The notes under the pieces: model-generated | Databases searched by the model: none | The model's input: the letters and a program-made list of their open reading frames with translations, nothing else | Told to the model about the DNA's origin: nothing | DNA from: Armatimonadota bacterium | GTDB taxonomy: Bacteria > Armatimonadota > Fimbriimonadia > Fimbriimonadales > Fimbriimonadaceae | Length of the DNA stretch: 64,000 nucleotides | Direction of reading: 5' to 3' | NCBI GenBank assembly: GCA_031400935.1 | Contig: JANNQV010000028.1 | Coordinates: forward strand, 186,001 to 250,000 | Shown here: positions 57,677 to 62,769 of the stretch, one piece after another | How positions within the stretch are numbered: the first letter of the stretch is position 1 | Layout: each line of letters opens with the position of its first letter | Position numbers and translations under genes: made by a program

Positions 57677-60600
57677 TTATATCACGCCCTTCTCCCTCAA
57701 TTTCGGATAATGGCATGCCTTGAACTTTTTGCCGCTTCCACAAGGACAGGAGTCATTCCGGCCGACCTTTGACCAATCTTGCTTTGACTCGTCGAACGAG
57801 ACGCTTGAACCAATCGCTGCCATCGCAGGAATCGAATCGCCGGCTTCCATTCGAACCATTGCAGGCGCTTCATCGGCAGACTCTTCAGATTGCTGAGCAT
57901 CTTGAACCTGAATCTCCGCCCGAAAGATCATTCGCACCGCTTGATCACGGATCTGTTTGAGCGTGGTTTGGAAGAGGTCAAAAGTCTCTCGCTTGTAAGC
58001 AACTAGAGGATCGGTTTGGCCGTATCCTCTTAGGCCAATGCCTTCGCGGATGTACTCGACCATCTGCAAATGCTCCATCCACTTGTCGTTAACGGCGCGA
58101 AGCATGACCTGCTGTTCGAGCGAAGCCATAATCTCGTCACCATATCGCTCGGCTTTTTGTTCATACGCAGCCATCGCAAATTCTGTGCATTTGTCAATGA
58201 GTTCATCGCCCACTGGAATCGCTCGAAGATCGTCTACCGATGCAAAATCAACAAGCGGGAAAAGTCCATTTAGGTCTTCGTACAGAAGGCCGTGATCGTA
58301 ATTTCTTCCTTCGTTTTCATCTATTACCCAGGCGTCGTTAACGATGTCCGTAATCATCTGTTTGATGAATTCCACGAGGTCTTCGCGAACGTGCTTGCCG
58401 AGCAAGACTTCGCGCCTCATGCCATAAATGTGCTCGCGCTGAGCGTTCAAAACGTCGTCATATTCGAGTACATGCTTTCGAGCTTCAAAATAGTGGTTTT
58501 CTATTCGCTCTTGCGTTTTCTCTATCATTCGGCTCAGGAATTTTGCGTTCACTTCTTCCATTGGCGGCCATGCCTTGAGCAGTGGATTTTCGAGCATATT
58601 CGCGTTGAAAATCTTCCAAAGCTGGTCTTCGAGAGACACATAGAACCTGCTCTCGCCAGGGTCGCCTTGTCGGCCCGATCTTCCTCGAAGCTGGTTGTCA
58701 ATTCGGCGGCTTTCATGCCGTTCTGTGCCAAGGATATATACTCCGTCAAGTGCTCGAACCACTTCAGCAACCTCTCGTCGTTCTTGGTCGCTCAATGGAA
58801 GTGGAGGAGCAGCACGTTCCTTACCACCGCGACGGAAGCTAGAAAAAGTGGATTCGTATTGTTCCAAAAGAGGGTCGCCATCTGAATCTCTCGCTCGAAC
58901 GATCTGCTCATCTTGAATTCGTCCGCCAAGCAAAATATCTACGCCACGGCCAGCCATATTTGTTGCAATAGTCACAGCGCCTTTTCGACCAGCTTCAGCG
59001 ATAATTAGCGCCTCTCGCTCATGGAATTTTGCGTTTAAGATGTTGTGCGGAATACCGTGAGTCAGCCCTTCTTCCAAGTACGATTTGTTTTCGCTTGTCA
59101 GCTTCCATTGTTCGAGCGCCCAGTCCATATTTTCTTGTGAAAATGCCTCACCGCTAAATCCAATCTTGCTCGCGAAATTTGCTAATGCCTTTCGGTCTTG
59201 GTCAGCGAGAGGAGTATTCGTGATTTCAATTACATCCTTCACAATGTCCTTGGGGACATCCTTTTTGACTTCCAAATGGTATCGAAGCCTTTGCGACAGC
59301 ACTAATTTCTGCAAAAGGTCGGTCGTCAAACGTGTTGACATAACTTCCGACATTTCGATAGAACGAGTGCCGATTAGAACGGGTTGCTGCTTGGAATACA
59401 AACGCAAGACGTCCCAAGTAATCGCGCGAAACTTCGCTTCAAGCGTCTTGAAAATGATGTCGCCGTGATCAATTCGGATCATAGGGCGATGTGTCGGAAC
59501 GCAGACCACATCGAGGCCGTAAATTTTTCGAAATTCGTCTTCTTCTGTTTTCGCTGTACCCGTCATTCCAGCGAGTTTTTCGTAAAGTCGGAAGAGATTC
59601 TGGAAAGTGATAACTGCAACGGTTTGGCTCTCACGCTGAACAGTTACGTTTTCCTTAGCCTCAAGCGCTTGATGAAGTCCATCGCTCAACCGCCTTCCAA
59701 ACATGAGCCTGCCGGTGTTTTCATCAACTAGTACAACTTCGTTACCGCGAACTACATAGTCCACATCTTTGTCAAAAAGCGCGACTGCTTTTACGGCAGC
59801 ATTGACGTGATGCAAAATCTTTGGATCGCTCGCGATGTTGTCAATCTCCATCGTCTCTTCGACAAGGTCCATGCCATCTTCAGTAAGTGAAACCGAATGG
59901 TTTTTCTTGTCAGCTTTGTAGTGAGTTTCGTTTTCAAGCTTCTTTGCGATTTCATTGATGTGCTTGTAAAGCGAGACATCCTCGTTGCTTGCGCCCGAGA
60001 TAATGTGTGGTGTTCTGGCCTCGTCAATGAGGATCGAGTCAACTTCGTCAACGATTGCGTAATGAAGTTCTCGCATCGAAAGTTGCGAAATATCGAACGC
60101 CATATTGTCGCGAAGATAGTCGAATCCAAACTCATGGTTTGTGCCATAAACAACGTCGCATAGATAGGCTTCTCGACGTGAACAAGAAACCAGATTCATA
60201 TATCTTGGATCGCCGAGTTGGTCTGCTCCAGGAACATAAAGGTAGCTCCCGCCGAGCTCTTCTGTGTCTTCGCCTTGGCCCTGAATAATGCCAAGCGATA
60301 TTCCGAGAAAATGGAAAATGGGACCCATCCAGACTGCGTCACGACGAGCTAGGTAATCGTTGGCGGTAACGAGATGCGCTCCGCGGCCCGTTAAGGCATT
60401 TAAGATCAGCGGTGCAACTGCAGCAAGGGTCTTTCCTTCGCCCGTTTTCATTTCGGAGATTCGGCCTTGGTGGAGCACCATGCTGCCAACATGCTGAACG
60501 TCAAAGTGACGCATTCCGAGTGTGCGACTCGAGACCTCACGGACTACGGCAAACACTTCCGGAAGTAGTTGGTCTAAGGTCTTGCCTGTTGCAATTTGCT

Positions 60601-60745
60601 CTTTGAAGGAAGGGCCTTTGGCTCGCAATGCATCATCGTCGAGGGCAGATATCTCGGTTTCAAATGCGTTGATTTGCGCCACGATTGGAAGCAGCATGTC
60701 AACGTCTTTCTTGCTAGTGTCGAATATTTTTCGTAGGAAATTCAT
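57677..60745 (-). CDS. secA: Preprotein translocase ATPase SecA
   Basis: EMKTGEGKT, DEVDSILIDEARTP, ATNMAGRG, RRIDNQLRGRSGRQGDPG, CPCGSGKKFKACH. Confidence 0.98.
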   Translation of the reverse strand: MNFLRKIFDTSKKDVDMLLPIVAQINAFETEISALDDDALRAKGPSFKEQIATGKTLDQLLPEVFAVVREVSSRTLGMRHFDVQHVGSMVLHQGRISEMKTGEGKTLAAVAPLILNALTGRGAHLVTANDYLARRDAVWMGPIFHFLGISLGIIQGQGEDTEELGGSYLYVPGADQLGDPRYMNLVSCSRREAYLCDVVYGTNHEFGFDYLRDNMAFDISQLSMRELHYAIVDEVDSILIDEARTPHIISGASNEDVSLYKHINEIAKKLENETHYKADKKNHSVSLTEDGMDLVEETMEIDNIASDPKILHHVNAAVKAVALFDKDVDYVVRGNEVVLVDENTGRLMFGRRLSDGLHQALEAKENVTVQRESQTVAVITFQNLFRLYEKLAGMTGTAKTEEDEFRKIYGLDVVCVPTHRPMIRIDHGDIIFKTLEAKFRAITWDVLRLYSKQQPVLIGTRSIEMSEVMSTRLTTDLLQKLVLSQRLRYHLEVKKDVPKDIVKDVIEITNTPLADQDRKALANFASKIGFSGEAFSQENMDWALEQWKLTSENKSYLEEGLTHGIPHNILNAKFHEREALIIAEAGRKGAVTIATNMAGRGVDILLGGRIQDEQIVRARDSDGDPLLEQYESTFSSFRRGGKERAAPPLPLSDQERREVAEVVRALDGVYILGTERHESRRIDNQLRGRSGRQGDPGESRFYVSLEDQLWKIFNANMLENPLLKAWPPMEEVNAKFLSRMIEKTQERIENHYFEARKHVLEYDDVLNAQREHIYGMRREVLLGKHVREDLVEFIKQMITDIVNDAWVIDENEGRNYDHGLLYEDLNGLFPLVDFASVDDLRAIPVGDELIDKCTEFAMAAYEQKAERYGDEIMASLEQQVMLRAVNDKWMEHLQMVEYIREGIGLRGYGQTDPLVAYKRETFDLFQTTLKQIRDQAVRMIFRAEIQVQDAQQSEESADEAPAMVRMEAGDSIPAMAAIGSSVSFDESKQDWSKVGRNDSCPCGSGKKFKACHYPKLREKGVI

Positions 60746-60755
60746 TTTTTATCTC

Positions 60756-60849
60756 AGGGTATGGGGTTTAGGGTGCAGGGTACTGGGCGGGGGCTTTCGG
60801 AAAGAAACGCAGACTTTAGTCTGCATCTGGATCACAGACTTTAGTCTGT
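60756..60849. repeat. Heptamer repeats plus two CAGACTTTAGTCTG palindromes in the secA leader
   Basis: agggtat ggggttt agggtgc agggtac; GCAGACTTTAGTCTGC (60809-60824) and ACAGACTTTAGTCTGT (60834-60849). Confidence 0.75.
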
Positions 60850-60912
60850 AAAATCCGCGCAAATACGAATGAGCGCTAGAAAATCGAGCGACACAGAAAC
60901 AATGTCGCCGAA

Positions 60913-61278
60913 CTAAGCCGGCCCAGCACGATTCGGATGAATCCTTGAAGCGACGACTGAAGCCAAACGCTCTGTCCGAATAGGATGAATCTGAATCCGG
61001 ATGAGGGATTCAGAAATCGGTTCTGAATCTTGCGAATTTGTTTCTGTATCAAACCATTGAATCAGCAAATTCGTAACTGTCGCGATTCGTCGCGACGTTT
61101 CAATTGCGATCGCATCCGAATCAAGATCGTCCGAATTCTCAATACAACGCTTGCCCTCAAGTCGCGGGTCGCAAAGTAGGGCCAAAGCTTCCGTAAACTG
61201 GCTCGATGCAATACCACGATCTATTCCAAGTGAACCTTGGAGGATTAGAATCAGCAGTGCAGGCAAAAATGGAAGCAT
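60913..61278 (-). CDS. Candidate SecM-like secretion-monitor / ribosome-arrest peptide upstream of secA
   Basis: 121 aa; hydrophobic N-terminus MLPFLPALLILILQG; C-terminus HPNRAGPA-stop; same strand, 167 nt upstream of secA; TATAAT upstream. Confidence 0.7.
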   Translation of the reverse strand: MLPFLPALLILILQGSLGIDRGIASSQFTEALALLCDPRLEGKRCIENSDDLDSDAIAIETSRRIATVTNLLIQWFDTETNSQDSEPISESLIRIQIHPIRTERLASVVASRIHPNRAGPA

Positions 61279-61575
61279 TTTTCTTCTTCCACTATTATAG
61301 ACGGGAATCGTTCGTAATTGAGCGTATTTGGGACCAATTGTTGTCAATTATCAGTTCTCGGATATCAGTCAAAAGTGGATCGGAAGGCAGATTTCGTAGC
61401 CGTATTTTCGGTTTCGAGAGCCAACCTGATTTACACTTTGTGCAAATTTAGCGGCAACAATGACAATGTCAACAACCTGCCAGCAACTTGCAAACCACTT
61501 GCCAAACACATGCCAAATTTCCATACGATGAAGCTTCCAGTCCAAAAAGCCGATCATGTATACTAGGATCGCTGC

Positions 61576-61665
61576 GGAGAGATGGCTGAGTGGACGAAAG
61601 CGCCCGCCTGCTAAGTGGGTAAGGGGTTAAACCCTTCTCGGGTTCGAATCCCGATCTCTCCGCCA
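61576..61665 (+). tRNA. tRNA-Ser(GCT)
   Basis: 90 nt with long variable arm; anticodon arm CCCGC-CTGCTAA-GTGGG; GGTTCGAATCC; 3' GCCA. Confidence 0.96.
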
Positions 61666-61729
61666 TTCTGATTTGTATGGAAGGCAATGAGGCTTGCAAG
61701 TAGATAGCAGGTTGTACACAAGTCGCCGC

Positions 61730-61778
61730 CAACACCCGACATCCAACACCCGAAACCCAAAACCATAAACCTAAAACC
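61730..61778. repeat. Degenerate heptamer tandem repeat
   Basis: caacacc cgacatc caacacc cgaaacc caaaacc ataaacc taaaacc. Confidence 0.75.
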
Positions 61779-61779
61779 C

Positions 61780-62769
61780 ATGCCCCCACGAATCCTGCCC
61801 GCATTACTCGTTACAGCCCTCGCGTTTTCGAGCGGATACAGCCAAACGCTGCAAGAATATGTCGCGTTGCGAAAGAAACACGGAATCAAGGTTGCCTTTG
61901 AAGTTTCAGCACTTGATGTCTTGATCGGAACAAAGACGATTGAAATTGCCGGCGTTATCAAAGGCTCATTTTCGATAAGCGGAAAAACAACCTATTTACT
62001 CGAACGATTGGACGAAAGCACCGTTGACATCGAATCAAAAACACCGATTGCATGGCTTCAGGGCAACGAAGTGCATTGCAGACTCCTTATTCGGGCTTCG
62101 AGGCAAACTGAGACGTCGTCGCTTCATGCTGAACTCCTCGGAGCCGCTCCCGAAGCAGACATTGCTCGCTTGGAAGCTCTTGCCAGACCCAAAACTCCGA
62201 CAAAAATCAATCACCCGACGACCAAGCCGCCACTTTCAGGTCCGATCGGCAAGGGGCAACCTGTTGCAGCTAATTGGACGCTCAGTGACACAGAACTTAT
62301 CAGAAGCTATGGTTCTTACATTAAGGGCTATAACAAGCGCTTAACCGACGAGCAAGCAATCGTAATCGCACAGGGAATCATTGGTTTCAGTAAACGCTAT
62401 GGCGTTGACTCTCGCCTCATTATGGCAATGGTGTTGGTCGAAAGCGGCTTCAATCCAGACAGCCGAAGCAAACCTGGCGCGATGGGATTGGGACAATTGA
62501 TGCCTGGTACAGCTCAAAGCCTCGGGCTTTCGAATGCTTACGATCCGATGCAGAATTTGTATGGCACGACACGTGTCATTCGTGGCCATATTGACAAGTA
62601 TAAAAAAATTACTGGTAACGACTACGAATCGTTGATTTTGGCGTTGGCAGCGTACAACTCAGGCTCGGGCACCGTGCGAAGAAACAACTATCAAGTCCCC
62701 CCGTATCGCGAGACCCAGAACTACATCCGAAAGGTGATCGGGGCTTATCGCCGGTTTTTGGGTTATTGA
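61780..62769 (+). CDS. Secreted lytic transglycosylase (SLT domain)
   Basis: VESGFNP, GAMGLGQLMPGTA, LAAYNSG, ETQNYI. Confidence 0.92.
   Translation: MPPRILPALLVTALAFSSGYSQTLQEYVALRKKHGIKVAFEVSALDVLIGTKTIEIAGVIKGSFSISGKTTYLLERLDESTVDIESKTPIAWLQGNEVHCRLLIRASRQTETSSLHAELLGAAPEADIARLEALARPKTPTKINHPTTKPPLSGPIGKGQPVAANWTLSDTELIRSYGSYIKGYNKRLTDEQAIVIAQGIIGFSKRYGVDSRLIMAMVLVESGFNPDSRSKPGAMGLGQLMPGTAQSLGLSNAYDPMQNLYGTTRVIRGHIDKYKKITGNDYESLILALAAYNSGSGTVRRNNYQVPPYRETQNYIRKVIGAYRRFLGY

Follow-up and report, generated by a model that had tools for sequence, protein, structure and literature searches.

A candidate arrest-peptide gene upstream of secA

The stretch of DNA analysed here, 64,000 nucleotides (nt) that we call the window (positions 186001-250000 of contig C28 in a 2.97-Mb, 67-contig genome, G000), carries directly upstream of secA a short upstream open reading frame (uORF) that very probably encodes a previously unlisted member of the arrest-peptide family uA_RQH_Fimbriimonadales, one whose sequence suggests that it would stall the ribosome at a C-terminal Arg-Ala-Gly-Pro (RAGP) core and monitor Sec; this assessment covers the identity of the uORF and its arrest function, the output step being weighed separately below. 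The uORF is not a new secretion monitor, and as a discovery of that kind it carries no weight, since a 2024 study had already described this family and tested it (Fujiwara, Tsuji, Yoshida, Takada & Chiba, 2024, Nat Commun 15:2711; PMC10987492). What sets the locus apart within the family is the atypical leader of its genus. A sequence-only reading of this DNA had proposed an independent secretion monitor for secA in a lineage far from Enterobacterales; the part of that proposal which places a SecM-like arrest peptide outside Enterobacterales is supported by the sequence comparisons below, whereas its novelty falls away with the published family. The principal features are the following.

60913..61278, minus strand: uORF, 121 amino acids (aa) plus stop (ATG at 61278, TAG at 60915-60913), probable member of uA_RQH_Fimbriimonadales
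61234..61278, minus strand: uORF codons 1-15, MLPFLPALLILILQG, signal-like hydrophobic N-terminus without a basic n-region
60919..60930, minus strand: sequence of the predicted arrest core R117-A118-G119-P120 (Gly119 codon 60924-60922, Pro120 codon 60921-60919)
60746..60912, minus strand: uORF-secA spacer, 167 nt, strongly structured except for the last ~34 nt
57677..60745, minus strand: secA, 1022 aa (Pfam SecA_DEAD, 1.5e-117; P-loop_SecA, SecA_SW, SecA_PP_bind and SEC-C)

The uORF is a real, constrained coding gene under purifying selection, as follows from the uniqueness of its C-terminal motif, the depletion of such motifs in the genome and its pattern of substitution. The predicted peptide begins MLPFLPALLILILQG and ends SRIHPNRAGPA, with one residue (A121) between RAGP and the stop. 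Residues 1-13 form its highest-scoring 13-residue window on the Kyte-Doolittle scale (mean 2.7), residues 45-90 are acidic (11 D/E versus 2 K/R), and ~100 residues separate the end of the signal (about residues 17-21) from Gly119; the 121-aa frame, its hydrophobic N-terminus, acidic middle and RAGP (60930-60919), the 167-nt spacer (60912-60746, with secA starting at 60745), and the hairpin and TACCCT discussed below were all recovered at the positions that the sequence-only reading gave. Among 19,699 stop-to-stop frames of the genome (at least 60 aa), the uORF itself is the only one with R[AD]GP within the last eight residues. A crude proteome of 2,064 long ORFs shows strong depletion of RAPP-like tetrapeptides: RAGP occurs once (16.0 expected), RDGP three times (9.1 expected), and RAPP and RGPP not at all (9.6 and 8.7 expected); the depletion of RAGP, RAPP and RGPP agrees with the avoidance of such motifs reported for bacterial proteomes (PMC12992588). 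When the uORF is compared with its counterpart in the same-genus sister species G001 (85% identity), the ratio of non-synonymous to synonymous substitution rates (dN/dS) is 0.154 at a dS of 0.63, against 1.3 and 2.8 for the other two frames and 0.021 for the N-terminal region of secA. No Pfam family was found for the uORF at E-values up to 0.1, and at E-values up to 1 the only match was to DUF1297 (E-value 0.24).

Probable membership in a published family

The 2024 study screened more than 30,000 GTDB genomes for uORFs of secA, secDF and yidC whose products combine a localisation signal at the N-terminus with a conserved motif at the C-terminus (PMC10987492; what is said here of this paper, and of PMC12992588, rests on portions of their content). 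The uA_RQH_Fimbriimonadales group has five members, all with RDGP, the peptidyl (P) site at Gly, spacers of 78-134 nt and SignalP-6.0 'SSio' signals extending from residue 1 to residues 20-22 (PMC10987492). [quoted passage not shown] Within those portions of the paper, regulation of the downstream gene is shown only for a secDF uORF of another order (PMC10987492). Two of the published sequences match, by eye, the uORFs of loci L021 and L039 among the relatives compared here, the 131-aa tested one agreeing with L021, and the public record L061 agrees with the 131-aa sequence over the end stretches compared. A full-text search for RDGP arrest peptides or for Fimbriimonadales secA arrest returned only this paper and its preprint.

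The window's uORF has the sequence features by which membership of this family can be judged, its signal being a putative one. It is a short ORF of unassigned function that immediately precedes secA on the same strand, its core is of the form (R/Q/H)-(A/G/D)-(P/G/S)-(P/G), being RAGP at residues 117-120 of 121 and conserved in homologues, and the distance from signal to arrest site (~100 residues) is well above the 30 residues used as a minimum. The host order is Fimbriimonadales, as judged from the relatives of its SecA and from same-family uORFs that read the same as the published rows. The hydrophobic residues 1-13 align with the N-terminus of the family, and hhalign matched the window's peptide to 13 RDGP members, its own genus excluded (96.2%, E-value 2.2e-9, residues 1-38 only), which provides the homology to the published members. 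Like these, the uORF is a Fimbriimonadaceae secA uORF with an N-terminus of the type MLPxLPALLLLLLxG.., a gap of ~100 residues between signal and arrest site, R-x-G-P 0-7 residues from the stop and a length within roughly 92-138 aa. It differs from the five in having RAGP rather than RDGP, in having IHPN and not the conserved Arg before the core, and in its spacer (167 nt, compared with 78-134 nt in the published rows); its genome is not among the five listed, and its secA start region is predicted to be unmasked, unlike that of many relatives.

Several points weigh against this assignment and against the arrest that it implies. The arrest data in those portions of the 2024 paper cover the 131-aa RDGP representative in heterologous systems and include no RAGP member (PMC10987492), and a pairwise BLASTP comparison of the uORF with that representative was not significant (E-value 19). 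The residues before the core are IHPN in the uORF as against QRS in the tested member and RRS or VRD in published members, and an Arg that lies two positions N-terminal to that of the core, invariant in the 13 RDGP members, is Pro in the window's uORF; arrest depends on the region N-terminally adjacent to the core (PMC12992588). The N-terminus lacks a basic n-region, the signal call being made from hydrophobicity and homology only. We note that RAGP supports arrest in the ApdP and ApcA contexts (PMC12992588).

The uORF also invites comparison with better-known arrest peptides. SecM of E. coli (Enterobacterales) is likewise encoded upstream of secA on the same strand and has RAGP near its C-terminus. 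Its N-terminal export signal has a putative counterpart in the signal-like N-terminus of the uORF, and its stall, Gly occupying the P site and Pro the aminoacyl (A) site, is what would be expected of the uORF. The uORF is nevertheless not a member of the SecM family, since it has no FxxxxWIxxxxGI element, as the sequence-only reading had correctly remarked, and no Pfam SecM match; of FxxxxWIxxxxGIRAGP it shares RAGP alone, with ERLASVVASRIHPN as the 13 residues before it, and there is no detectable sequence relationship. The two loci also differ in that no stem over the secA ribosome-binding region, of the kind that a stalled ribosome opens, is predicted in the window, and in the single residue between RAGP and the stop in the uORF. 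ApdA, ApdP and ApcA, which reportedly were put forward by Sakiyama and colleagues in 2021 (NAR 49:1550) as monitoring-substrate candidates, resemble the uORF as predicted here, as far as the descriptions drawn on go, in having a signal or transmembrane segment, a core near the C-terminus (theirs R-A-P-P or R-A-P-G) and a stall with the third core residue in the P site; unlike the uORF they lie upstream of secDF2 or yidC2, belong to Actinobacteria or Alphaproteobacteria and have Pro at core position 3. The B. subtilis peptide YwcI is similarly short and has RAGP (88-91 of 100 aa) near its C-terminus, and its stall, with Gly in the P site, is Pro-dependent, but it is encoded upstream of sacT, is not Sec-related and has no export signal in its description (PMC10987492).

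Conservation and distribution

Across the family the N-terminus and R-x-G-P are kept and the middle has diverged, which is the outcome of the conservation test that the sequence-only reading had proposed. Used as a query against 41 related genomes, G000 among them, the peptide gave full-length or N-terminal matches, and those in G001, G020, G008, G007 and G019 are small ORFs directly upstream of secA, with C-termini reading NRAGPC, SRDGPLLS, SRDGPF, TRAGPLSA and SRDGPFAG, respectively, before the stop. The only invariant positions in the six-sequence alignment (A1) are M1, P6, A7, L13, G15, R117, G119 and P120, and the R, G and P of the core are also invariant in the alignment of 13 RDGP members (A3). 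Within the host's family the A1 profile matched 62 of 147 other genomes; in the four other families of the order it matched none (0/3, 0/1, 0/29 and 0/20 genomes; 0/53). All 30 of the loci that were fetched encode ML(P)xLPALLLLLLxG...[ST]R[DA]GP followed by 0-7 residues and a stop, and secA was located 58-180 nt downstream in 29 of them, having been missed by the pattern search in L043.

A SecA-anchored census, in which upstream DNA was taken as usable from 400 nt onwards, comprised 78 public loci. The 43 loci with usable upstream DNA and a SecA identity of at least 59% include 31 with RDGP, eight with RAGP and four without the uORF, these four being the most distant of the set (59-61%); at a SecA identity of at least 62% the uORF is present in 39/39 of the nearest relatives, and the profile search thus undercounts it. 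Upstream DNA was too short at seven further loci at or above 59% and at two below. The family is therefore near-universal in Fimbriimonadaceae (39/39 nearest relatives with usable DNA), compared with the five genomes of the 2024 paper. The titles of the nearest public relatives of the window's SecA (60-71% identity) name Fimbriimonadaceae, Fimbriimonadales or Armatimonadota. Below 59% there are 26 usable loci, of which 18 have no uORF, five have another uORF ending in RAP-stop, two have one with RAPP and one is spurious.

The 50 distinct uORFs of the family divide into 41 with RDGP and nine with RAGP, and the motif lies 0-7 residues from the stop throughout. On a SecA tree the D/A label of the core requires seven changes, at least three of which are forced by well-supported branches, and core position 2 thus flips repeatedly between D and A. 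The window's genus forms a well-supported pair in this tree, and its nearest neighbour, L040, carries RDGP. This naturally occurring alternation of D and A might serve to probe the contribution of the residue beside the invariant Arg.

Some loci recovered with the census deserve mention in their own right. The secA uORFs of L103, L105, L107, L109 and L110 read MLFQTLLQLNIL...ATPALAGW...FPHAxRAP-stop, ending exactly at RAP 99-162 nt before secA, and of the secA uORFs of L112 and L119 one ends SPRAPPA and the other SRAPPRG; the contigs of these RAP-stop and RAPP loci are titled Armatimonadales, Capsulimonadaceae or Armatimonadota, and their SecA is 46-48% identical to that of the window. The supplement of the 2024 paper lists three o__Armatimonadales secA uORFs (PMC10987492). 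Four further loci from public MAG records (L046, L054, L062 and L099) combine a Fimbriimonadaceae-type secA and a family uORF with the titles 'uncultured archaeon', 'Methanoregulaceae archaeon', 'Synechococcus sp.' and 'Archangium gephyra'; the first three nest within the Fimbriimonadaceae clade of the SecA tree and L099 is outside the sampling of that tree. These titles look like binning or labelling errors.

Structure of the uORF-secA spacer

The spacer is unusual both in length and in structure. Family spacers range from 58 to 180 nt, and only six of 50 exceed 102 nt, those of the window and of G001 among them. Folded as a 188-nt leader, it has a minimum free energy (MFE) of -68.1 kcal/mol, compared with -41.9 +/- 3.7 kcal/mol in 200 shuffles (z -7.1). 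Its last ~34 nt stay unpaired in both the MFE and centroid structures. The following elements can be recognized within or beside it.

60888..60908, minus strand: stop-adjacent hairpin GCGACA-(9 nt)-TGTCGC, 4 nt after the stop
60800..60849, minus strand: twin-hairpin repeat, ACAGAC-TAAA-GTCTGT, linker GATCCAGAT, GCAGAC-TAAA-GTCTGC, then GTTTCTTTC
60915..60929, minus strand: 5' arm of a predicted long-range helix, extending from the arrest codons as far as the first stop base (pair probabilities 0.81-1.0)
60780..60796, minus strand: 3' arm of this helix, AAGCC...GCCCAGUAC, at -51..-35 from the secA AUG
60746..60779, minus strand: C/A-rich, G-poor leader that runs up to the secA start, predicted to be unpaired and lacking a strong Shine-Dalgarno (SD) sequence

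The foot of the stop-adjacent hairpin lies 16 nt past the first base of the Gly codon, where the front of a stalled ribosome would be expected. In G001 the stem (GCGAC/GTCGC) and its spacing are kept and the loop and T-run are not. The hairpin is still predicted to form when a stalled ribosome is imposed as a constraint. The long-range helix was considered as a conserved switch and rejected, its predicted probability being near 1 in G000 and the helix absent in G001.

The twin-hairpin repeat follows a plan of about 50 nt, in which a 6-bp stem with a TRAA loop is followed by a linker of 9-12 nt, a second hairpin and a T/C-rich tail. A search with nhmmer found seven copies in G000, five of them just after stop codons, and none of its sequence matched Rfam. 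The copies other than that in the spacer are:

C28:87869-87918
C28:80165-80213
C20:69452-69501
C8:2827-2876
C14:41145-41194
C54:13995-14044

A twin hairpin occupies the same place in G001, both stems having compensatory changes (CAGAC/GTCTG to CGGAA/TTCCG), and the G001-type stem is dispersed in that genome at four other places (loci L124-L128, including the secA leader), compared with none for a reversed control pattern. These genome-specific stem variants at dispersed copies indicate that the stems evolve in concert within each genome, which suggests either an element resembling repetitive extragenic palindromic (REP) sequences or the target of a binding factor that co-evolves with it.

Leaders rich in C and A similar to that of the window precede secA in relatives, and may represent an SD-independent leader type in this lineage. 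In a crude gene set, 70 of 2,038 genes have at least 40% C at -60..-10, and SD-like words are rare upstream of the genes (GGAG 14%, AGGA 15%); the sequence-only reading was thus right that no clear SD precedes secA, yet this is not exceptional in the genome. We note also that C/A-rich, G-poor, repeat-like leaders with ACCC/AACC units occur both before secA (60746-60808, minus strand) and before the gene at 61780 (61720-61779, plus strand), which encodes a signal-bearing protein of 329 aa on the plus strand.

The output step

Whether a stalled ribosome might unmask the secA start, as in SecM, was addressed by computing the energy needed to open positions -18..+5 of secA in 50 loci, either free or with a 31-nt ribosome footprint at the arrest site. 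The footprint lowers the opening energy by a mean of 1.79 kcal/mol, compared with 0.05 and -0.11 kcal/mol for control footprints 36 and 72 nt upstream, and a drop of at least 3 kcal/mol is predicted in 12/50 loci (1/50 and 0/50 for the controls); the paired Wilcoxon values (2e-5 and 2e-4) overstate the difference, since the compared loci are related. In many short-spacer members the MFE structure pairs the codons after RDGP and the stop with bases just before the secA AUG. By these models, SecM-like unmasking of the start is supported for between about one quarter and two-fifths of the family members and not for the window's genus, where the start region is predicted to be open in both species (2.2 kcal/mol free and 2.5 stalled in the window, 0.8 free and 1.1 stalled in G001). 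Nor does the uORF tail of the window show specific complementarity to the start region of secA (-7.2 kcal/mol, 59% of non-cognate pairs being as good). The sequence-only reading had seen no evident SD unmasking here, and the predicted open start, with or without a stalled ribosome, bears it out. Since unmasking is predicted in part of the family but not there, the window's genus offers a natural case of how the output of an arrest peptide can be rewired.

A family-wide comparison of tail/start duplexes was dropped as evidence. Its cognate mean of -13.6 kcal/mol compares with -10.4 kcal/mol for non-cognate pairs, with 0/10,000 permutations as low, but controls within loci were not significant (upstream window versus start region, p 0.26; tail versus secA coding sequence, p 0.12), so that the cognate difference is largely an effect of composition.

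If the uORF is an arresting Sec monitor, as we think very probable, events might run as follows. The uORF and secA would be co-transcribed. The N-terminal hydrophobic segment would target the nascent chain to Sec when ~100 residues from the peptidyl-transferase centre, and the ribosome would stall with Gly119 occupying the P site and Pro120-tRNA the A site, as the tested representative and SecM suggest. Pulling by an active translocon would free the stall, and because pulling releases it, the duration of the stall would report Sec capacity and could feed back on SecA. In the window's genus a stall may still raise SecA through remodelling of the structured leader (the long-range helix, the stop-adjacent hairpin and the twin hairpin), a model-based proposal that we hold tentatively, as somewhat short of probable; such remodelling would affect access to a standby site, transcript read-through or stability, and not the start codon itself. 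A more specific proposal, unlikely on present evidence and offered as speculation, is that the sensor (signal and RAGP) was kept while the output module was swapped in this genus, the masking stem being replaced by a leader of 167-180 nt with a conserved hairpin at the edge of the stalled ribosome and a REP-like twin hairpin. Were this true, the stall would control secA via read-through, stability or a trans-acting hairpin-binding factor, and not via unmasking of the ribosome-binding site.

Other explanations deny the arrest, the coupling to secA or the route just outlined. That the uORF encodes an ordinary small secreted or membrane protein, in which RAGP and the adjacency to secA are incidental and no programmed arrest occurs, seems to us most improbable: although purifying selection extends over the whole peptide, including its middle, as in a folded protein, and arrest of the window's sequence is deduced from its family only, invariance across that family is limited to the N-terminal signal and R-x-G-P while the middle diverges, secA synteny holds in all of the nearest relatives, the motif never strays from its place near the stop and is otherwise avoided in the proteome, and the family representative arrests in an Arg-dependent manner, according to the text on the RQH members (PMC10987492). 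A fairly unlikely alternative concedes the arrest peptide and holds that its coupling to secA was lost or much weakened in the genus, the ancestral masking stem having been broken as the spacer grew to 167-180 nt and gained the twin-hairpin repeat, with secA now translated constitutively from its open C/A-rich leader and the uORF kept for other reasons or by weak coupling. The open start region of both species, free or stalled, the lack of complementarity between tail and start region, the exceptional spacer lengths and the presence of the twin-hairpin repeat within the spacer of both species would all fit such a loss; the first two of these, and the absence of the long-range helix in G001, also weigh against the output step proposed above. 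On the other hand, the low dN/dS over the whole uORF, with RAGP and signal kept at the observed dS, argues for continued function, the stop-adjacent hairpin and its spacing are conserved, and in silico folding leaves room for the stall to influence a standby site, transcription or mRNA decay.

The sequence-only reading had suggested attenuation at the stop-adjacent hairpin, a model in which this hairpin, or alternatively the T-tailed twin hairpin, would act as a terminator whose folding a ribosome stalled at RAGP blocks, allowing transcription to enter secA. The tnaC-tnaA leader is an example of an arrest peptide that acts on transcription termination and not through masking of a ribosome-binding site, TnaC stalling at its own stop codon and blocking an adjacent Rho site, and it is what an attenuating leader in the window would resemble; the C-rich, G-poor stretch of the window, however, is separated from the stall site by more than 100 nt. 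A consensus scan does mark the hairpin at 60909-60887 with CGATTTTCTA as terminator-like, by sequence geometry a ribosome with Gly in the P site reaches about 60909, at the foot of this stem, and the position of five of the seven twin-hairpin copies of G000 just after stop codons is terminator-like. Yet the T-run after the stop-adjacent hairpin is not conserved, G001 having AGTTAATAGAGG, and an intrinsic terminator there was rejected as a conserved feature for this reason. [quoted passage not shown] We therefore consider attenuation improbable, and assign to other mechanisms whatever likelihood is left over by leader remodelling, loss of coupling and attenuation.

Flanking region

Searched against Rfam at E-values up to 1, positions 60000-62000 gave only the tRNA, a plastid 3' untranslated region match that overlaps the tRNA and falls below gathering, and a sub-threshold snoRNA match in the spacer, so that no match at gathering lies between the uORF and secA. 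A consensus promoter scan found one site, upstream of the uORF, where 1.5 were expected from shuffles, and none within the spacer; the site accordingly has no evidential weight. The sequence TACCCT lies 10 nt before the secA ATG.

61445..61472, minus strand: promoter-like TTGACA-16-TAAATT, 167 nt upstream of the uORF start, a consensus match only
61576-61665, opposite strand to the uORF: tRNA-Ser(GCT), upstream of the uORF

Synteny upstream of the uORF differs within the genus, G000 having the divergent tRNA-Ser(GCT) and a 300-nt gap and G001 (L002/L018) a same-strand ORF that enters the start of the uORF.

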